Positions 5,221 through 20,361 of a stretch of DNA of 55,329 bases are shown here, piece by piece; the stretch's first letter is position 1, and each line of letters starts with the position of its first letter. The stretch is from a virus. Its lineage: Duplodnaviria; Caudoviricetes. The notes under the pieces are model-generated. The model searched no databases. It saw only the letters and a program-made list of their open reading frames with translations, and was not told where the DNA came from. The DNA is taken from positions 1 through 55,329 of the IMG/VR virus record IMGVR_UViG_3300012582_000006, one strand, 5' to 3'. The position numbers and the translations under genes were made by a program.

Positions 5221-5365
5221 TTTGGCTAGGTAAGGCGTGGTTTGGTAAGGTGATGTTAGGTAAGGCGTGGTGTGGTTGTGTAGGGTTAGGTTCGGTAAGG
5301 TAATGCGAGGTGAGGTTGGTTAGGGTGAGGTTGGGTCGGCCGAGGTAATGTTGGGTGTGGTGAGG
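5221..5365 (+). repeat. GGY-NN pentamer array 1 (29 in-phase units); candidate guide-type ncRNA
   Basis: tttgg ctagg taagg cgtgg ... tgtgg tgagg; every unit starts with a pyrimidine, 23/29 end in GG, middle dinucleotide varies. Confidence 0.95.
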
Positions 5366-5917: not shown

Positions 5918-7819
5918 ATGGCTTACCAGAATTTGCTACATTTTGATGACGACACGAAAGCCTTCGAAGTGGTGCCTGAGAAGGGTCAGAAGAAGGAAAA
6001 GAAAAAGGCTGTGTCGAAGAAGGATCAGAATAGAGGTTGCGACTTTTGTCCGCTGAACAAAGTGAAGGGTTTGAAGAAGGTAAAAAATCTAGATAAGCTC
6101 AGAGGCAAAGAGATCATGGTCTGGGCACAGAATCCTGGGGAAGAGGAAAATAGACAAGGAAAGGAACTGGTTGGTCCAGCAGGTCAGTTTCTTTGGGAGC
6201 ATGCGGAATCGGTTGGGTTGAAGAGAGAAGATTGCGACATACAGAACGTGGTCCGATGTTGGACGATATCGGAAAATGAGTTTGGTCAGTGGGAGCCGAG
6301 GAGTCCTTCGAAAGAGGAATTACATTGTTGTTCGATCTATACCGAAGAGGCTTTAGAGAAGACTTATGGTAAAACAAAGGTGCATATCGTCTTCGGTCAG
6401 GTGGCAGCGAAGGTCTTGTTGAAGGGAGAGTATCGGAAGGACCAGAAGACATTTTTTTCTGAGAAGTTAAAGGCTTGGGTGATTTTGACCTATCATCCGA
6501 GTTACTTCCTGCGTGGGGCTCCGCGTTCCAAAATTCAGGAGTTCTTGGAGGCATTGGCAACGGCAGTGGCAAAAGTGAAAGGCGGAACTGGTAGGTTCAC
6601 GTATATCGAGAGGCAGGATTACAAATCGGTTCCAACAAGAGATTTGAAGGTGGAAATAGAAGATCCGATAAGAGAGGTAGCCTCGAAAGGAATTGTGACA
6701 TCGGTGGATATCGAGGATGGCACGAATGATAAAGGTGAGAATGTAATCGTGTACGTCGGGTTCTCTTGGAAGAAGGGGCATTCAAGAGGGGTGTTCTTCG
6801 ATCACCGGGATTTGAAAAATTCTCCGGAAGAGCAACAAGCAAAGTTTCATGTTGTGTCCGGAATTATTACCGATCCAAATATTCCTAAAGCATTGCAGAA
6901 CGGTGTGTATGATGTGTGGAAGTTCTTGAAGTTGTGGTCGTTGAAGGTGAAGGGCTTCGTACATGATACGATGTTCTCTGAGTATTTGAGATACTCCGGT
7001 CGAAAGGCCTATGGTCTGGAAGCGATCTCGGATATTCGATTCAGGGAGTTTGCTGGGTACAAAGGAATTCTTGATCCGTATCGTGATCCGAAGACTGGAT
7101 TGGTGAATTTTTGGACCGTTCCAATGAAGGTAATCCGGGTGTATAACGGTGCGGATTGTGATCTGACCAAAAGAATTCAACGCGACAACAAAGGAAAGGT
7201 GAACGAGTCGCTCCTGAAAGTTTTGATTCTTGTGGCGCCGGTGTTGGCGAAGATGGAAATAGAGAGTGGTCCACTTTTGGATTTCGAGCATGCGGATTTG
7301 TTGGATCGGTGGTTACCGGTACGATTGGAGTCTTTGCTGAAGGAGCTTCGTCATCTTGCCGATAACAAGAAGTTCAATCCGAATTCGACGCCGCAAGTGG
7401 TTGAGATCATCTACGACAAGTTGAAGCTTGGAAAATATCTGGACGTGGAATGGAAACGAGATTATCCCAGGTCGACGAACAAAGAGACGATGTTGCTGTT
7501 GGAATCTTTCCACGCCTTTCCAAAGAGGATGCAGGAGTACAGGAAGCTAGCAAAGAAGAAATCAACGTATTTGGATGCCTATCGGAAATCAGCGACTCTT
7601 CACGAAGGTCGTGTCAGGACAAAGTGGTGGTTGACTGGAACGATTACCTGTCGGTTGCGGTCTGGTGGTGAAAAGATAAAAAAGAAAGGGGAAGAGTCGG
7701 ACAAGGAAAAAGGGATCGTGAATCTGCAAAATATCCACGGGGCGGAGGAGATTGAGTGTTTGCTGGTGTCGGATATGAGATGGCGTGAGTTGTACAAAGA
7801 ATGGAGAGAACAACAATGA
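5918..7819 (+). CDS. polA: family A DNA polymerase, N-terminal part: UDG-family-4-like domain + 3'-5' exonuclease + thumb
   Basis: CDFCPL, AQNPGEEE..VGPAG, YHPSY (UDG-like); DIE, NGVYD, YNGAD (Exo I-III); FNPNSTPQV, TGTITCRLRS, NLQNI; ends before motif A. Confidence 0.9.
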   Translation: MAYQNLLHFDDDTKAFEVVPEKGQKKEKKKAVSKKDQNRGCDFCPLNKVKGLKKVKNLDKLRGKEIMVWAQNPGEEENRQGKELVGPAGQFLWEHAESVGLKREDCDIQNVVRCWTISENEFGQWEPRSPSKEELHCCSIYTEEALEKTYGKTKVHIVFGQVAAKVLLKGEYRKDQKTFFSEKLKAWVILTYHPSYFLRGAPRSKIQEFLEALATAVAKVKGGTGRFTYIERQDYKSVPTRDLKVEIEDPIREVASKGIVTSVDIEDGTNDKGENVIVYVGFSWKKGHSRGVFFDHRDLKNSPEEQQAKFHVVSGIITDPNIPKALQNGVYDVWKFLKLWSLKVKGFVHDTMFSEYLRYSGRKAYGLEAISDIRFREFAGYKGILDPYRDPKTGLVNFWTVPMKVIRVYNGADCDLTKRIQRDNKGKVNESLLKVLILVAPVLAKMEIESGPLLDFEHADLLDRWLPVRLESLLKELRHLADNKKFNPNSTPQVVEIIYDKLKLGKYLDVEWKRDYPRSTNKETMLLLESFHAFPKRMQEYRKLAKKKSTYLDAYRKSATLHEGRVRTKWWLTGTITCRLRSGGEKIKKKGEESDKEKGIVNLQNIHGAEEIECLLVSDMRWRELYKEWREQQ

Positions 7820-8055
7820 GTGAAAAGCATGTAACGTTCCTCAGGAACGAACCAAAGTCAAAAGTGGAGCTTCTAATTGTGAAAGATGGGTGGTTGCCAC
7901 TGACAGCTAATGGTGAAGATTTGGAGATGGTTCAAGATGCTTACGTTATAAGAGTATGGTCGTTAAGGGCACCATCTGGTGAGGCTCGTGTAAACGAGAT
8001 TAGGTTGAGGGCAAGTGAGATGAGCGTGTTGATGCATTCGGTGGAGGAGAAATGA
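7816..8055 (+). CDS. hypothetical protein lying between the polymerase halves
   Basis: ATGA overlaps with both flanking genes. Confidence 0.6.
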   Translation: MSEKHVTFLRNEPKSKVELLIVKDGWLPLTANGEDLEMVQDAYVIRVWSLRAPSGEARVNEIRLRASEMSVLMHSVEEK

Positions 8056-8573
8056 TCCTCAGTGGACGAGACTTGAAATTGTATATCGATATAGGAAAAT
8101 TGGTAATCGATCCGGTAACACCAGAACAGTTCCAGCAGAACGGTATAGATTTGGTTCTTGAAGAAATTTCGTATATGTCTGGGCCCTTTTGGCTTGGATG
8201 TACGAGAGAAGTATTAGAAATGCCAGATGATCTGATGGCCTTTGTGGAACTCAGGAGTTCGTGGGCTAGACAAGGATTCTTTTTGCCACCGACGATTGTG
8301 GATGCAGGATTCAAAGGAAATTTGACTTTGGAAATGCTGGCCTTTATGGAGCATCCAAAGGAAGCGCTTGGAAGACGGTTTGCTCATTTGATCTTTGCCA
8401 AGACGTCTAGTCCATGTGAAAAATATCAAGGTATGTATTCTGGTCAGCGCGGGATTACACCATCAAAACTGAAGTCAGAATCTAAAGGTCACGTCACGCC
8501 TGATGAAATACTAAGATCACACGGTTATGATCCAGATGAGATTAGAAGGTTGAGTAAAGGAGGAGAAGAATGA
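8052..8573 (+). CDS. dcd: dCTP deaminase (trimeric dUTPase superfamily)
   Basis: MILSGRDL, QQNGIDL, RSSWARQG, VDAGFKGNLTLE, YSGQRG. Confidence 0.9.
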   Translation: MILSGRDLKLYIDIGKLVIDPVTPEQFQQNGIDLVLEEISYMSGPFWLGCTREVLEMPDDLMAFVELRSSWARQGFFLPPTIVDAGFKGNLTLEMLAFMEHPKEALGRRFAHLIFAKTSSPCEKYQGMYSGQRGITPSKLKSESKGHVTPDEILRSHGYDPDEIRRLSKGGEE

Positions 8574-9067
8574 GTTTCGTGTTGCAAGATTGGTTGGGGG
8601 ACCTTTCATTTATGCAACAGAGTGTGTTGCTGACGGCGATTCGTGGTGCGGATACGTTGCCGAAGAGACACATCAGTAAGTATCTTCTTAGGTGGTATCG
8701 TCGTTGTATTTTGACTTGTGCTTTTGAGAAAGTAGTGCACAAGACTCCGGACGAGCCTTGTACTGGAAATTTTACCGGTTCGGTTCCTATGGGATTGGAA
8801 GATTTGTGGCGGACGTACTTGCAAGACATAGATATGATTCTACATCATTTTCATTTGCACGTGTTGCATGCATCTGAGATACTCGGTTACAAGCATCCTG
8901 ATAGACCGATCAGGGAATGGTGGGCAATGTTTTACCATCAGGCGGTTAAGGATATGCACGTTCGTCCGGAGACAGAAGAAGAAATGGATAAGAGGTTGGG
9001 AGATAGTCGGGATCAATGGATGGAAGCTGGTGGACAGCACGAGGTTTGGCATGAGTCTGGCAAGTAA
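8570..9067 (+). CDS. hypothetical phage protein (His-rich helical)
   Basis: translationally coupled ORF; MQQSVLLTAIRG, LLRWYRRC, HHFHLHVLHASEILGYKHPD. Confidence 0.7.
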   Translation: MSFVLQDWLGDLSFMQQSVLLTAIRGADTLPKRHISKYLLRWYRRCILTCAFEKVVHKTPDEPCTGNFTGSVPMGLEDLWRTYLQDIDMILHHFHLHVLHASEILGYKHPDRPIREWWAMFYHQAVKDMHVRPETEEEMDKRLGDSRDQWMEAGGQHEVWHESGK

Positions 9068-9947
9068 GTACGCGGATCTTGATATCTATTTAGGTGCGGA
9101 CCATTCGCAATTGGAAATCCGCGTTCTTGCTCAGATGTCGAAAGATGTATTGCTGACAGAGTTGCTTCAGACGGGTGAGGATATTCATTCTTCTGTTGGT
9201 TACGAGTTGACGGCAATCCCAATCGAGAAGATAAAGAAAGATAGGGATATAAGGACAGCGATCAAAGGGATTCATTTTGGAATTATCTATGGTCTGACGG
9301 AAGAGACTTTGTATCTCAAGTTGAAAGCGGATGCGGCGGAGCGTGGTGAGCAGTTCAACATGACTCGTGAAGAGTTGGGCAAGATCTATAAGGGCTACTT
9401 TAGAAAGTTCAAGGGCGTGGCGGAGTTCATCGAGAAGCAGCATCAATTTGCCCAAGACAACGCTTATGTAATGAGCTTGTTTGGTTTTAGTAGGGAGATT
9501 GCAATAGCAGGAGATGAGACGAGGTCAACGTTTTGGGCGAATCAGGCTGTGAATACACCAATACAAGCTTCGGCACATCAGTTGATGTTGGTGGCGATGG
9601 CAATTTTGGGTTTGAAACAGAAGACGTATAGCTTGTTGCAACGGCCTTCGATGGAAGTACACGATTCGCTTTACGTGTTTGTGAAGCTGATGAAGTTGGC
9701 GGAAGCCTATAAACAATTCATCCAGCTCATGGAAAAAGAGATTTTGGTATATGTGAAGAAGTGGTGGCCGGAAGTGAACTGGGTGATTCCGTTGAAGGCC
9801 GAGGCGAAAGCTGGGTTGAGATTGGGTGTAATGGTTGAGTATAAAGGCGAGTCTCCGGAAGAGTTCATCGAAATGTGGTGTCAGAAGAATAAGAAGTTCG
9901 AGAAGAAACTGCGAGAGGAAATGAAGAAAGGATTGGCCAATGCGTAG
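9051..9947 (+). CDS. polA: family A DNA polymerase, C-terminal catalytic (palm/fingers) part
   Basis: motif A GADHSQLEIR, DIH, motif B RTAIKGIHFGIIYG, NTPIQ, motif C EVHDSL; GAGGT RBS before ATG 9051. Confidence 0.9.
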   Translation: MSLASKYADLDIYLGADHSQLEIRVLAQMSKDVLLTELLQTGEDIHSSVGYELTAIPIEKIKKDRDIRTAIKGIHFGIIYGLTEETLYLKLKADAAERGEQFNMTREELGKIYKGYFRKFKGVAEFIEKQHQFAQDNAYVMSLFGFSREIAIAGDETRSTFWANQAVNTPIQASAHQLMLVAMAILGLKQKTYSLLQRPSMEVHDSLYVFVKLMKLAEAYKQFIQLMEKEILVYVKKWWPEVNWVIPLKAEAKAGLRLGVMVEYKGESPEEFIEMWCQKNKKFEKKLREEMKKGLANA

Positions 9948-13744: not shown

Positions 13745-14647
13745 ATGTCGATAGAAGCAAGAGTGACGATGTTGATTGCGTTTGTGGTGTTGTTGCTTGT
13801 GGTGGTATTTGGTGTATTTGGTTGTACAAGAATTGGGGCTGGGCATGTTGGTATAGAGGTGAACCAGGCCGGTTCGCAGCGTGGTGTGCAGGACTTTACG
13901 ATAAGGACCGGATATGTCTTCTACAATCCATTGGCAACGACGATCGTAGAATATCCCACATTTGTACAGACGGCAATCTGGACGGCGAATCCACATGAAG
14001 GACATCCACAGAATGAAGAGATCACGTTTACGACAAAAGATTCAATGGTCGTGTCTGTAGACGTGAATCTCAGCTATTCGTTATTGGCGGAAAAAGTACC
14101 AGCATTCTATGTGAAGTTCAGGTCGGATGATCTGGATATGTTTACGCACGGGTTTTTGAGGAACGTGGCGAGGGATTGTTTCAACGAGGTTGCTGGTAAG
14201 TATGCAGTGGAACAGATTATGGGTGACAACGCTCCGTTTTTGCGTGATGCCAGAAGTTGCTTGCAGAATCAAGTAGCAGACATCGGTGTGCATATAGAAC
14301 AGTTTGGGATCATCGGTGCGCCGAGACCGCCGCAAGGAGTGATTGATTCGATTAACGCGAAAGTACAGGCTGGTCAGATTGCTTTGCAGAAGAGGAACGA
14401 AGTGTTGCAGGCTGAGGCCGAAGCTGCGAAGACCGTTGCTTATGCCGAGGGTGAAGCAAAAGCTATGGTAACGAGGGCAGAAGGTCAGGCGAAATCAAAC
14501 AGACTTATTAGCGAAAGTTTGACGGATAAGGTTCTAGAGAGAACCAGATTGGATTTGCAATGGCATTGGATCGATAAGTGGAACGGACAGAGGCCGAGTG
14601 TTGAGTCAACCGCGGGTGGAGGGATGTTGATTCAGGTTCCAAAGTAA
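13745..14647 (+). CDS. SPFH/band 7 (prohibitin-like) membrane protein
   Basis: N-terminal TM, IGAGHVGI, YPTFVQT, AEAEA coiled coil, WIDKWNG. Confidence 0.9.
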   Translation: MSIEARVTMLIAFVVLLLVVVFGVFGCTRIGAGHVGIEVNQAGSQRGVQDFTIRTGYVFYNPLATTIVEYPTFVQTAIWTANPHEGHPQNEEITFTTKDSMVVSVDVNLSYSLLAEKVPAFYVKFRSDDLDMFTHGFLRNVARDCFNEVAGKYAVEQIMGDNAPFLRDARSCLQNQVADIGVHIEQFGIIGAPRPPQGVIDSINAKVQAGQIALQKRNEVLQAEAEAAKTVAYAEGEAKAMVTRAEGQAKSNRLISESLTDKVLERTRLDLQWHWIDKWNGQRPSVESTAGGGMLIQVPK

Positions 14648-14650
14648 AGT

Positions 14651-14775
14651 TAAGGTGTGGTTAGGTCGGGTGCGGTTAGGTCCGGTACGGCGAGGTGCGG
14701 TACGGTTTGGTGTGGTACGGTCAGGTCCGGTCAGCTCGGGAGAGGCCAGGTATGGTGAGGTAAGGTTTGGTGTGG
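14651..14775 (+). repeat. GGY-NN pentamer array 2A (25 units)
   Basis: taagg tgtgg ttagg tcggg ... tttgg tgtgg; 24/25 units end in GG. Confidence 0.95.
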
Positions 14776-14822
14776 TGTGAGGGAAAAATGAAGTGAAGAG
14801 CTTAGCTGAGGAGATGGCATTG

Positions 14823-14952
14823 TGAGGTTTGGTCCGGTGTGGTAATGTTCGGTCAGGTGTTGTAAGGTGCGGCTTGGTAAGGTTTGGTGTGGCGAGGTCG
14901 AGTGTGGTACGGTCAGGTGTTGTCGGGTGTGGTGAGGTTTGGTAGGGTGAGG
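14823..14952 (+). repeat. GGY-NN pentamer array 2B (26 units)
   Basis: tgagg tttgg tccgg tgtgg ... taggg tgagg; 22/26 units end in GG. Confidence 0.95.
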
Positions 14953-15880: not shown

Positions 15881-16906
15881 ATGCAACGAACGTTGGCTGT
15901 TTCGTTAAGACCTTATCTGCTTAGCCAGCTCATCGGACAGGATCAGCTGGTAGAGACAATTAAGACTCAGTACAAGAACAAACGAGAACCAGCTGCTTGG
16001 TTGTTTGTCGGTTCGACCGGAACTGGTAAGACGACCGTGGCGAGGATAGTGGCACTGAGTTTGCAGTGTAAGCATGGTGAGTTTGGAGAGCCGTGTGATG
16101 CTTGTCGGGTAAAGAGAGACGATTTCGCAATCCACGAAATAAATGCCTCAGAAGTTTCAGGTGTTGCGGACATTCAAAAGATTGCTGCTGGTTCTGTATA
16201 CTTACCAATGCCTCCGTCTCGTAGAAACGTACTTGTGTTGGACGAGGCACAACGACTTTCCAAAGATGCACAGAATCTGTTGCTGAAATATTTGGAAGAT
16301 GCTCCTAAATCAACGGTGTGGATTATTTGTACGACGGAAGAGAACAAGTTGTTGACGACGATCATAAGACGATGCGAACGAGTGTCGTTGAAATTGCTGC
16401 AAGCGGAGGATATAGGACGATTGGTAAAGCGCGCTTTGAAGTTCGTTAGAGAAACAAAGAAAAATGCGGAACCATTGGTGGAGCAGTTGTGGGAAGCTAG
16501 GATTCAATCGTCCGGTATGATTTTGAATGCGGTTGAGAAGTATCTGGCTGGTGAGTCTGCTAAGGAAGCTGTATCGTCAATCGGATTTGGTGCCGACGCA
16601 CTTGCGATCTGTCGTTCGTTGGAGAAGGGGGACTGGGATGTCATACGAGAAGAGACAAAAAAAGCTACAGCTGATGACCTTCGAGGAATTCGTGCTCAGG
16701 TGGCTGGATACTTGCGACGATGTTTGGAACGAGCGATTCCAGGACCCAGGGCGGGAGAGTTCGCGAAAGCGATTGGAAGAATGGCGCAAGTTGATAGCTT
16801 CACGGATGCAACACAAGGACCGGCAACAATTGCCGCTCTCTATGAACTCTGTCAGATTTTTGCAGGGCCGGTAGACGATCTTGACGAGGTTAGACGAGAT
16901 GATTAG
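15881..16906 (+). CDS. dnaX: clamp loader, DNA polymerase III gamma/tau-like AAA+ ATPase
   Basis: LRP..LIGQ, GSTGTGKTTVARI, C...PCDAC, EINAS, LDEAQRLS..AQNLLLKYLE, TIIRRC. Confidence 0.85.
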   Translation: MQRTLAVSLRPYLLSQLIGQDQLVETIKTQYKNKREPAAWLFVGSTGTGKTTVARIVALSLQCKHGEFGEPCDACRVKRDDFAIHEINASEVSGVADIQKIAAGSVYLPMPPSRRNVLVLDEAQRLSKDAQNLLLKYLEDAPKSTVWIICTTEENKLLTTIIRRCERVSLKLLQAEDIGRLVKRALKFVRETKKNAEPLVEQLWEARIQSSGMILNAVEKYLAGESAKEAVSSIGFGADALAICRSLEKGDWDVIREETKKATADDLRGIRAQVAGYLRRCLERAIPGPRAGEFAKAIGRMAQVDSFTDATQGPATIAALYELCQIFAGPVDDLDEVRRDD

Positions 16907-17321
16907 GATTAGAATGACGGATGCGGAAGGGCACGGTTACTGGTTGTACGATGATGGGCAATTCGTTTTGGCACTGAAAGAAAAGCCGTCGGTAGGTATT
17001 CAGTTCAGAACGATAGCGTGGTTGAAGAAAGGGGTCTTTTCGTTTAGACATTTGTACTGGCACAAAGAACATAAGTGTTGGTATCCGTCCAGGTTTCCGA
17101 TGATGAAGACAAAGTCGTTTGGGATCAAGATCGGCTATGTGCAAGAGATGGTGGATGGAGAAGAGTTCAAAGGTTTTGTGCATCCGAGGGTCTTGACGAA
17201 GCGGAATGTAATTAGACACTCGACGGGATATGAAGTCCAGTTGAAGTTGATGCCGAAGGATTTGAAGAAAACAGAAGAGGCGGCAATTGAGTATTGGCAA
17301 GAGTTTGGTACGGCGAGGTGA
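16899..17321 (+). CDS. hypothetical basic protein; last codons run into array 3
   Basis: ORF coupled to dnaX; no recognisable motif. Confidence 0.6.
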   Translation: MIRIRMTDAEGHGYWLYDDGQFVLALKEKPSVGIQFRTIAWLKKGVFSFRHLYWHKEHKCWYPSRFPMMKTKSFGIKIGYVQEMVDGEEFKGFVHPRVLTKRNVIRHSTGYEVQLKLMPKDLKKTEEAAIEYWQEFGTAR

Positions 17322-17553
17322 GGTTAGGTGTGGTGAGGTGCGGTCGGCCGAGGTGTGGTCAGGTGAGCCTAGGTGCGGTTTGGTGTGGTAATGTCAGGCG
17401 TGGTCTGGTGCTGTAAGGTAAGCTCTGGTGAGGTACGGTGATGTAAGGTGCGGTTTGGCGGGGTAAGGTGATGTTAGGTTGGGCCCGGTACGGTGCTGTG
17501 AGGTTAGGTGTGGTATGGTCGGCTATGGCGAGGTAATGTGAGGTGTGGTGAGG
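17304..17553 (+). repeat. GGY-NN pentamer array 3 (50 in-phase units)
   Basis: tttgg tacgg cgagg tgagg ... tgtgg tgagg; 250 bp without phase slip, 40/50 units end in GG. Confidence 0.95.
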
Positions 17554-20361
17554 ATTCTGATTACAAGTGACTGGCAGACAGATTATGAAAACCTTGAACT
17601 TTGTTCAAAGGCTGCGGAAGAAATTTTGCAGCTGAAGGAAGAGCATAGGTTCGAGGTTCTCATACATGCAGGAGACTTGAAGCGTCAGTACAATCCGATA
17701 GATGTTCGTATCGTAAACTTTTGGTTGAAGATGATTGGAAAGTGTCGGAAGGCTGGATTGGAAGTTTTCGTTAACCTTGGAAATCACGATCGGGTTGGGA
17801 TGCATGTTGATACACAAAATTGGTTGCCGGTGGTCAGAAAAGCCGGTGCGTTCGCTTATGATGAGCCGCAGCTTGTTGTGGGGTCGTTTACCGATCGTGG
17901 TGTCTCGATTCCACCGTTGGCATTTCTTCCCTTTAGAAACAATCCTGTTTTGTTGAAGCGTGAAGCTCATGATCTTGCTAAGAAAGCAAACGAGAACAGC
18001 ATTCTGATTTTCCATTGCGATTTGAAGAATGCTAGGTACAATGTGCTTTCTCGTTCTGCGGTTGATCTATCGGTTGAGGATCTGTATCCGGATAAGTACA
18101 TGTTCTGTGTTGGTGGTCATTTACACTTTCAGCATAAGGTAGCGGATAATATTTGGTATGTTGGTAGTCCATTCGCAATGGATTGGGGAGAAGCAAACCA
18201 GCGGAAGGGTTATTTGTTGATTGATACACTAAAGAAAACGATCAAGAGAATTCGCTCAAAGATTCCAGGATGGTACGATCCAAATTGGCCTGGATTTGAG
18301 GAGTCGAAGCCGGAGAGTTGGAAAGGGGCCAAGGTAAGGATCAAGGTTCCGTGCGATGGAGTTCAGCATGTTAGAGAGCTACTTGAAAAAGCACGGGTGG
18401 AAGCGGCTAAGAAATATGATGGAGCAGAGATTGTTACAGTTCCTGAATTTCGTGAGGCGGAGAGGGCTGAAGGGAAGATTAGATTGGGTCTTCCTGATGA
18501 AAAGAAAATCAGAATCTACGTACAAGAGACACTGCCGGATGAATTGAGAGGTTATGAATCGGCAATCAAGAAATATCTCGTGGAGCAGCTTTCACTTGTC
18601 GGTGGTTTGGAAAGGGAGCATGGGGAGCTAAAGTTTCTAAAGACACGGGCTAGAAACTTTCTTAGCTATGAGAAATTAGACTTTATATTTGAGCCAGGGC
18701 TTTGTGTGATAGCAGGAGAGAATAAAGATTGGAAGGGAAGGAGCAATGGAAGTGGGAAGACATCGGCATTGCAACCGATTGCAGTAACTTTATTTGGACA
18801 GACATTCAAAGGACAGAAGCATGATGGCTGGATGAGACGTGGTACGGATAAGAAGGAAGAGGTCTTTGCAAAAGTTTGGTTTCAGGATTCCCAAGGAAGA
18901 GCCTGTTGGGTCAATAGACCTAGGCAACCAAAAGAATCAAAGCTGAAGCTGGTAGTGGATGGTGATGTGGTAGAAAGCGGAAACAGACCGGAGAGTACGC
19001 AGAAGTTGATCGAGCAGGTAACCGGTTACACTTGGGAGACGCTTGCGAATGCAATCTACATCGATCAGTCGAAATCCCATTTGATGTTGACGGGAACGGA
19101 GTCGGAGCGAAAAGGATTTCTTGCCAAGTTACAAAACTTGGAAAGGTTCGAGCGGGCTGAGAAATCCGTCCGGGACCAAAAGAGCGACTTTGAGCGCCGC
19201 TACGAGTTGAATTCTGACCGTCTACAATCCGTTTTAACGGAGGAAAAGAACCTACTCGACACAATATCCCGTGCGAAGCGGATTTTAGCTCTAAACGCGT
19301 CTGTGTCGGTTTCTTACCGTCGCGTGAAACGACTGTTTTTGTCGAAAAAGGCTGAATTAGAGACTTGGGAAGCAAAAGCCGAGATGAACTTGACGTTACT
19401 TGACAAGGAGCTTGTTGAAATAGAAAAAGTAGACAAAGAAATGACTAAACAGTTGGCTTCAGTGGAAGAGAGATTGGATGTACTTAGGACCAGATTGTCG
19501 AAGTTCAAAAGAATGGAAGGTGTCTGTCCGACCTGCGAGCGTGTGATAGATGAGAAGGCAATTCAGTTGGCGATTCCGGAAATGGAAAAGAAAATACGTG
19601 GACTGGAAAAACAGGTCGAAGGTTTTGGGGGACTGGAATGGCAACGTAAGTCGCAGAGGAGAGGGCTCGAGAACAAAAAGATAAAGTGGCTCAGGAACAA
19701 AAGCTTGGCTGGTGAGGTTTCAGACCTGCAAGTGAGAATGGAAAAACTGAAGTTCGAGTGGCTTCAGTACAAGAGGCAGCAAGAGTTGATTGATGGCTTG
19801 CAGAAGCAGGTGAATCAGTGTAAGGAGCTTGGTAGTGGTTTGACTAGAAAGAAAATCAAGATCGGAAAATGGCTCAAGGTGCTGAAGTACTCTCAATCGG
19901 TATTCCAAAGAAACGGATTGCCTGCATCGTTGAATCAACAGATCTGTCCAGAATTGAATCAGGCGGCGGCGGAGTATGCTGAACTATTTGCTCAGAGAGA
20001 AATTCAGGTTCGGTTTGCTGTGGACGAAGAAGGAAGACTGGATGTGCGGGTGATTAATGCACACGGTGGTGAAGGGGTAGCGGATCAATCGGAAGGTGAA
20101 ATGAAAATGGCTTCGTTGATCACTTCCTTTGCGGTGAGATCGGTGGCACCGAAGACGAACATCCTGATTTTGGATGAGCCGGGTGACGGCTTGGATGCGA
20201 TTTCGGCAAGGAGTTTTGCTAGAGGGTTGAAGCAGGTGACGGATCGGTTCGGAAGTATTTTGTTGACGACTCATAATCCAGCAATCTTATCTGAGCTGGC
20301 GGATGCAAAGTTGGTGGTGGTCAGAAAAGAAAACGGGATAAGCGAGGTGGTCGATGGCTAG
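17545..20361 (+). CDS. fused SbcD(Mre11)-SbcC(Rad50) nuclease-ATPase
   Basis: TSDWQ, HAGDL, LGNHD, GGHLH, YVGSP (metallophosphoesterase), then NGSGKTS, CPTC zinc hook, SEGE signature, LILDEP, LTTH in one ORF. Confidence 0.9.
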   Translation: MVRILITSDWQTDYENLELCSKAAEEILQLKEEHRFEVLIHAGDLKRQYNPIDVRIVNFWLKMIGKCRKAGLEVFVNLGNHDRVGMHVDTQNWLPVVRKAGAFAYDEPQLVVGSFTDRGVSIPPLAFLPFRNNPVLLKREAHDLAKKANENSILIFHCDLKNARYNVLSRSAVDLSVEDLYPDKYMFCVGGHLHFQHKVADNIWYVGSPFAMDWGEANQRKGYLLIDTLKKTIKRIRSKIPGWYDPNWPGFEESKPESWKGAKVRIKVPCDGVQHVRELLEKARVEAAKKYDGAEIVTVPEFREAERAEGKIRLGLPDEKKIRIYVQETLPDELRGYESAIKKYLVEQLSLVGGLEREHGELKFLKTRARNFLSYEKLDFIFEPGLCVIAGENKDWKGRSNGSGKTSALQPIAVTLFGQTFKGQKHDGWMRRGTDKKEEVFAKVWFQDSQGRACWVNRPRQPKESKLKLVVDGDVVESGNRPESTQKLIEQVTGYTWETLANAIYIDQSKSHLMLTGTESERKGFLAKLQNLERFERAEKSVRDQKSDFERRYELNSDRLQSVLTEEKNLLDTISRAKRILALNASVSVSYRRVKRLFLSKKAELETWEAKAEMNLTLLDKELVEIEKVDKEMTKQLASVEERLDVLRTRLSKFKRMEGVCPTCERVIDEKAIQLAIPEMEKKIRGLEKQVEGFGGLEWQRKSQRRGLENKKIKWLRNKSLAGEVSDLQVRMEKLKFEWLQYKRQQELIDGLQKQVNQCKELGSGLTRKKIKIGKWLKVLKYSQSVFQRNGLPASLNQQICPELNQAAAEYAELFAQREIQVRFAVDEEGRLDVRVINAHGGEGVADQSEGEMKMASLITSFAVRSVAPKTNILILDEPGDGLDAISARSFARGLKQVTDRFGSILLTTHNPAILSELADAKLVVVRKENGISEVVDG

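Follow-up and report, generated by a model that had tools for sequence, protein, structure and literature searches.

What is the long GGY-punctuated tract that lies between two replication genes of this phage, and could it, as the original prediction suggested, store a coding target with every third (wobble) base skipped, and so resist synonymous escape? The stretch analysed (the window, 55,329 nt) is the whole of a linear virus record (G000), estimated to be 57% complete and carrying phage replication, queuosine and sugar-modification genes. Tract 3, at 17305-17551, has 50 variable doublets set alternately with triplets of a GGY-type scaffold. The doublet string listed in the original prediction agrees with the window sequence at 50 of 50 positions, the counts including GA 12, GT 6, AA 6, GC 5 and TA 4, with 14 doublet types in all. 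Between 17307 and 17549 the 49 scaffold triplets keep a single unbroken 5-nt register: 39 are exact GGY (34 GGT, 5 GGC), and the remaining ten are TGT (6), GCC (2) or GCT (2). Against a GGY background of 4% in the window, the binomial expectation for this scaffold is about 1e-40. The tract and the genes on either side of it can be laid out as follows:

16881..17321, + strand: upstream ORF, function not assigned; 146 aa from TTG, with an alternative ATG at 16899
17302..17306, + strand: 5' leader AGTTT (RNWUU form), containing doublet 1 (TT)
17307..17529, + strand: variable part, doublets 2-45 on the GGY-type scaffold, putative guide(s)
17530..17553, + strand: purine-rich units 46-50, which include a Shine-Dalgarno-like GAGGT and the GTG at which the next gene starts
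17545..20361, + strand: SbcD-SbcC (Mre11-Rad50-like) fusion gene; Metallophos and SMC_N/AAA_23 domains, phrog_77 and phrog_100

Because unit 1 is part of the leader common to the clade's tracts and the purine-rich 3' end takes up units 46-50, the guide content of tract 3 is confined at most to units 2-45. The helical peptide that had been read from the whole string as a target is accordingly not tenable as a single real one, its first and last five residues stemming from the constant ends. Within 17307..17529 there is no register shift, no stable fold above shuffles (z=+1.5) and no Rfam match, ribozymes included. There is no excess of promoters or terminators at the tracts. A separate or structured 3' tail is absent: tract 3 passes directly into the next ORF, and the 45 nt downstream differ from one clade tract to another. 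A single contig of run X1, a possible source of the window, covers it in full without change, and run X2 covers parts of it, also unchanged; tract 3 is therefore not an assembly artefact. Run X1 holds another contig, of 752 nt, with a GGY/NN tract outside the window; its depth is 6.3, against 6.8 for the tract-3 contig, and it possibly belongs to the portion of this genome that the window lacks.

Tract 3 also has some internal patterns. An identical 13 bases occurs at 17371-17383 and 17446-17458, 75 nt apart, and TT units stand at positions 1, 16 and 31; the tract could thus consist of three 15-unit guides plus the 3' end, a pattern noticed post hoc in the sequence. Between 17320 and 17510 all four TA doublets come after GA (p=0.002 for this particular combination; p=0.35 for four occurrences of any pair at all). 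Identical units at lag six are over-represented (8, against 3.2 +/- 1.7 expected), and 30-nt duplications within 17320-17510 are possible. At lags 1-5 identity between neighbouring units is not above expectation, which argues against simple slippage.

The junctions with the flanking genes are as the original prediction described them, in that tract 3 supplies both the upstream gene's final codons and the ribosome-binding site (RBS) and start of the SbcD-SbcC gene. The last four codons and stop of the upstream ORF, ending at 17321, read through the first units of the tract; this ORF has neither a Pfam nor a PHROG hit, and its ortholog in the complete relative G004 is 70% identical. The SbcD-SbcC gene starts within the last units, at a GTG at 17545 or 17548, of which the latter aligns with the start in G004. 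Elsewhere in the window (5918-9947) the family A DNA polymerase is divided between two ORFs. A uracil-DNA-glycosylase-like domain is fused to the first of them, and a dCTP deaminase and one further ORF separate the halves; G002-G004 are arranged alike.

What kind of element has this form? Tract 3 is made up of five-base units with a constant GGY and a variable NN, the repeat by which VIPR vrRNAs are defined. VIPR, described in 2026, employs guides of 9-16 YNNGG units that, in the preprint's account, pair with DNA while leaving out one base for every unit (10.64898/2026.04.26.720920). No vipr gene was found in the 55 kb of the window by tblastn or profile search, and an HMM of 120 homologs, run with filters off as a search for a diverged copy, recovers only the gene in G004. 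Four relatives (G001-G004) were identified via the clamp loader. One of these, G004, is complete (128,576 nt, with terminal repeats), and the window is collinear with its positions 38,156-96,067, at a mean amino acid identity of 75.7% over nine core proteins. Its vipr is a 179-aa gene at 121,145-121,684 with one tract on either side, outside the collinear segment and 25 kb past the point where the window's contig ends. The protein matches the Vipr of Escherichia phage SUSP1 (PDB 36pp_D) at E=3e-9; its structural model (pLDDT 86.5) matches Csm3/Cas7 RAMPs at E ~1e-7.

The G004 Vipr has 442 homologs. Among 35 further viral loci with such homologs, two of them duplicates of others, 34 carry adjoining GGY/NN tracts of 7-78 units, and long tracts are therefore normal for the G004-type Vipr group. 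All 66 non-duplicate tracts at these other loci lie at most 1.4 kb from the gene (flanks of up to 10 kb), and scans of the whole record for two of the loci agree in finding tracts only near it. Unbroken tracts adjoining vipr include those of L038 (10638-11025, 78 units), L055 (7657, 72 units), L052 (4424-4746, 65 units) and L046 (2448-2750, 61 units); when one portion of the L038 tract is translated as codons, it may resemble an excisionase-type helix-turn-helix. L044 has a Vipr homolog (47% identity) but no GGY/NN tract in 20 kb, and its Vipr may use a non-canonical unit. No homologs of the G004 vipr neighbours were found beside vipr at the other loci. A host search for clade genes in a genome contig collection found none; its two Vipr matches are distant homologs from archaeal bins.

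We consider it likely, on this basis, that tract 3 is a vrRNA guide tract serving the phage's own Vipr, whose gene would lie in the portion of the genome beyond this contig. This reading is favoured because a collinear, complete relative has both vipr and nine tracts, and because G005 (131.5 kb, 82% complete, 60% amino acid identity, syntenic), which is without vipr, is also without tracts. Could the phage instead have lost vipr, with the tracts redirecting or soaking up the Vipr of a co-infecting relative? Such solo vrRNAs are on record in F5 satellites and vipr-null SUSP1-like phages, in the portion of the report available (10.64898/2026.10.15.759431), and the 55 kb of the window indeed lack the gene; but the contig, barely more than half complete, stops short of the place where G004 keeps its vipr, the sole complete genome with such tracts has the gene while the vipr-less G005 has none of them, and the tracts match no vipr genes above shuffles (36 loci, 120 proteins). 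Loss of vipr is thus unlikely. Tract 3 read as codons is likewise no better than shuffles when compared with the 120 Vipr homologs.

If tract 3 is a guide tract of the phage's own Vipr, its doublets should bear on the skip rule. In the preprint text the skipped base is mostly the wobble base, and resistance to synonymous escape is given as the rationale (10.64898/2026.04.26.720920). A codon-position-1+2-like composition had been predicted for the doublets, together with a comparison of codon frames. They were scored against the frames of the window's coding sequences under eight models, including bulk + strand DNA, with a uniform distribution as baseline. For tract 3 the sense 1+2 model gains +7.5 in log-likelihood over uniform and alone escapes rejection (p=0.09), p being <=0.005 for frames 2+3 and 3+1, for each antisense frame and for bulk + strand DNA. 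The gain over uniform comes from two doublets, GA and AA, which create the Shine-Dalgarno-like GGTGAGG and GGTAAGG. Once they are removed, sense 1+2 scores +0.8 / -0.2 in tract 3, equal to uniform, and is no better than uniform at the other vipr loci (-2.5 and -6.8), though it nonetheless scores above 2+3 and 3+1. Pooling the clade (289 doublets from 15 tracts) gives 17.2 for 1+2 and 16.4 for bulk + strand DNA, both rejected, with an excess of TA and GT relative to 1+2; here the predicted frame does no better than bulk. For 1,085 interior doublets from other vipr loci a six-frame mixture places a weight of 0.95 on sense 1+2, a model that by itself does not fully fit them (G=118). The order of doublets in tract 3 is no more protein-like than that of shuffles (z=0.45). 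The predicted 1+2-like bias thus holds in a weak form; the doublet composition is consistent with a wobble-skip code, and is not proof of one.

No target was found for any tract above chance. The 15 clade tracts were compared with G000-G004 at skips of 0-3, and nothing scored above 8 shuffles except a trivial skip-3 self match; nor did 81 tracts against 772,449 bases of related loci, or the 15 clade tracts against G005-G007 together with four additional loci (285,083 bases), yield anything above shuffles. Within the 55-kb window the best 10-unit self-target match, 17/20, is attained by 26 of 100 shuffles. Units 31-40 come close to the antisense strand of the 370-aa gene upstream of the first tract in the window, in wobble register (18/20 in G002 and G004, 17/20 in the window); this near match was dropped because 26 of 100 shuffles reach 17. 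A match of 17/18 between a G004 tract and G005 was also set aside: 8 of 1000 shuffles equal it, it is the outcome of trying 15 tracts, and its skipped base is at codon position 2.

A gapped pattern search of sequence collections, which had been proposed as a check on the wobble-skip idea, gave no support: one 9-unit motif of tract 3, exact matches only, had 0 viral, 6 genome and 7 metagenome hits, and none of the 13 extends, their flanks being at chance level. These scans covered one stretch of tract 3, units 32-40. One 8-unit motif of tract 1 gave 23 viral hits, 0 of which extend. The intended positive control, a 9-unit motif of the 78-unit L038 tract, gave 4 hits, again with 0 extending; sensitivity is low, and since the control motif failed too, the blank collection scans say little. 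What stands of the proposed wobble-skip target is thus its agreement with the published one-base skip and a genomic context that points to VIPR; a gapped target and a coding signal in unit order did not emerge. The inference is probably right for tract 3, by this indirect route.

The window holds four tracts, all on the + strand, tract 3 having three sisters:

5224..5363, + strand: tract 1, 28 units, starting 4 nt past the stop of a 370-aa gene
14654..14778, + strand: tract 2a, 25 units, after an SPFH gene
14816..14950, + strand: tract 2b, 27 units, ending at the RBS of a CmcI-like methyltransferase gene

Tracts 2a and 2b both recur unchanged in a contig of the independent run X3. The 37-nt spacer that separates them (within 14779-14825) has a two-codon ORF and an overlapping 10-codon ORF ending in the first units of 2b, and is perhaps a gene remnant. 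The SPFH gene lies at three places in otherwise collinear relatives (13745-14647 in the window, 127,253 in G004, 12,228 in G001), each at or close to a tract site, and genes may be shuffled with particular frequency at such junctions.

G004 has nine tracts of matching style (10-29 units), seven of them 1.9 kb to tens of kb away from vipr. The site of tract 1 is also filled in G002, G003 and G004, with tracts of different content. In three relatives the tracts at this site have 9, 28 and 29 units and no doublet runs in common beyond shuffles, as expected of programmable content. At the tract 3 site G004 has a plain four-base stop/start overlap and G002 a small unrelated stretch, and G001 (a 29-kb fragment, 68% amino acid identity) has no tracts, including at the corresponding junctions. 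Comparison of filled with empty sites shows, at the level of sequence, that gene junctions acquire tracts, lose them and have them rewritten, the tract ends supplying stop, RBS and start.

The clade set comprises 15 non-redundant tracts (G003, identical to G004, was left out). An upstream ORF of at least 50 aa ends -8 to +15 nt from the first GGY in 13 of the 15. RNWTT occurs within 3 nt of the tract start, also in 13 of 15, as compared with 9 of 66 tracts at the other vipr loci and 23 of 194 background stop codons, for which a wider stretch of 14 nt was allowed. In 57-72% of tracts the final four units read AA, AG or GA, as against about 30% for units further in, and this purine-rich end does not depend on the guide. 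RN/WUU is the RNase E consensus in Salmonella, according to the portion of that study available (PMC5222698), and in the present phage the leader may likewise be cut by an RNase E-type enzyme.

Might the tracts act in cis, with Vipr coating them on the mRNA and hiding the RBS of the next gene, so that the dispersed tracts form a regulon whose doublets drift? All 15 are on the coding strand, and in 12 a long ORF starts -4 to +29 nt from the last GGY (a short ORF in the other three); the missing tail and target, and the lack of a coding signal in unit order, would also be in keeping with an operator. Against an operator, the sites are not conserved, tract 3 being replaced by a simple overlap in G004 and length and content at the tract 1 site being wholly replaced; the downstream genes have no function in common, and drift alone would not predict that frames other than 1+2 are disfavoured. 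We regard a cis-acting operator as quite unlikely. That tract 3 is a neutral microsatellite of degenerate pentamers, expanded from Shine-Dalgarno-like units, is highly improbable, since, although the codon signal is borne by GA and AA and the surplus of identical units six apart hints at local duplication, there are 14 doublet types with no neighbour identity at lags 1-5, a fixed leader, and, already weakening this reading, the fact that in unrelated viruses such tracts strictly accompany a RAMP gene (and are absent from the vipr-less G005).

The guide-tract reading has its own weaknesses: it loses ground because the contig has no vipr and no target exceeds chance, because the codon signal depends on GA and AA and the pooled clade doublets fit 1+2 poorly, because ten of the 49 scaffold triplets depart from GGY, and because the G001 fragment is without tracts at the corresponding junctions and there is no tail. 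In SUSP1, changes to GGY abolished silencing, the changes tested there differing from TGT, GCC and GCT (10.64898/2026.04.26.720920, from the preprint text).

Assuming tract 3 is nonetheless a guide tract for the phage's own Vipr, how might it work? It would be transcribed within the replication-gene mRNA, as its strand and its lack of a promoter or terminator of its own suggest, and released by a cut at the RNWUU leader; the leader is there in the sequence, and the cut would be of RNase E type. Vipr would then protect the freed tract, with one protomer per five-base unit, as in the filament of the published structures (10.64898/2026.04.26.720927, as far as its available text goes). Each GGY would be buried by Vipr, leaving the NN pairs to engage double-stranded DNA; in every unit one base, as a rule the wobble base, would be passed over, and transcription of a rival phage or satellite would be silenced, as published for SUSP1; for tract 3, it is composition that bears on the skip code. 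Fifty units would probably make up several guides or targets rather than one, to judge from the 9-16 units of tested guides.

A more specific, doubtful but possible version is that the clade has a tail-less, vap-less VIPR variant, with guides written into gene junctions genome-wide, cut from mRNA at an RNase E-type leader and ending on the next RBS. If so, Vipr loading would both mature multi-target guides (up to 50 units) and tune phage replication genes, and a record of how new guides are gained would be preserved in the sites that are filled in some relatives and empty in others. The inferred code coincides with the published VIPR rule; the remaining value of the locus lies in guide maturation and guide acquisition, for neither of which does the preprint text, in the part available, give a mechanism. 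The clade offers matched filled and empty junctions, a full turnover of content at one site and a common leader. A natural 50-unit tract tests the possible length of Vipr filament and target, and tail-less guides freed from mRNA would simplify multiplexed use.

How does all this compare with VIPR systems already described? The wobble-skip code is already published and is not new. The nearest system is type II VIPR of phage SUSP1 (Vipr, Vap1, vrRNA1-4), with which the present tracts have in common phage-borne five-base GGY/NN units with variable NN, a sequence homolog of Vipr in G004, and a sense 1+2 bias that fits the published skip. SUSP1 guides have 9-16 units and a 40-nt pseudoknot tail, whereas tract 3 has 50 units in one register and is tail-less; the SUSP1 vipr-vap operon is flanked by its guides, while the window tracts lie among replication genes and the G004 vipr has no conserved vap neighbour. 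Unlike SUSP1 vrRNAs, tract 3 overlaps a stop codon, an RBS and a start codon and has frequent TGT, GCT and GCC units, and the RNWUU leader and genome-wide dispersal of the clade tracts differ from described vrRNAs. Solo vrRNAs, in the portion of their report available (10.64898/2026.10.15.759431), are similar in that a GGY/NN tract is unaccompanied by vipr, whether on its contig or in the surrounding 20 kb, but they carry the SUSP1 tail and sit in vipr-lacking elements, and here the complete relative has vipr. The staggered or ribozyme-separated vrRNA arrays of other VIPR types (figs. S18-S19, as far as available) also combine several guides, a long tract and no type II tails; tract 3 differs in having neither a 1-nt register shift nor an Rfam ribozyme. 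Junction-embedded, leader-bearing, dispersed guides do not appear in the available text of the VIPR preprints (10.64898/2026.10.21.760802 included), whose type diagrams (Fig. 5A, S17), tables and data files may contain such loci. Although without the length, tail and vap of type II, tract 3 is, by its repeat and its link to Vipr, probably a vrRNA.
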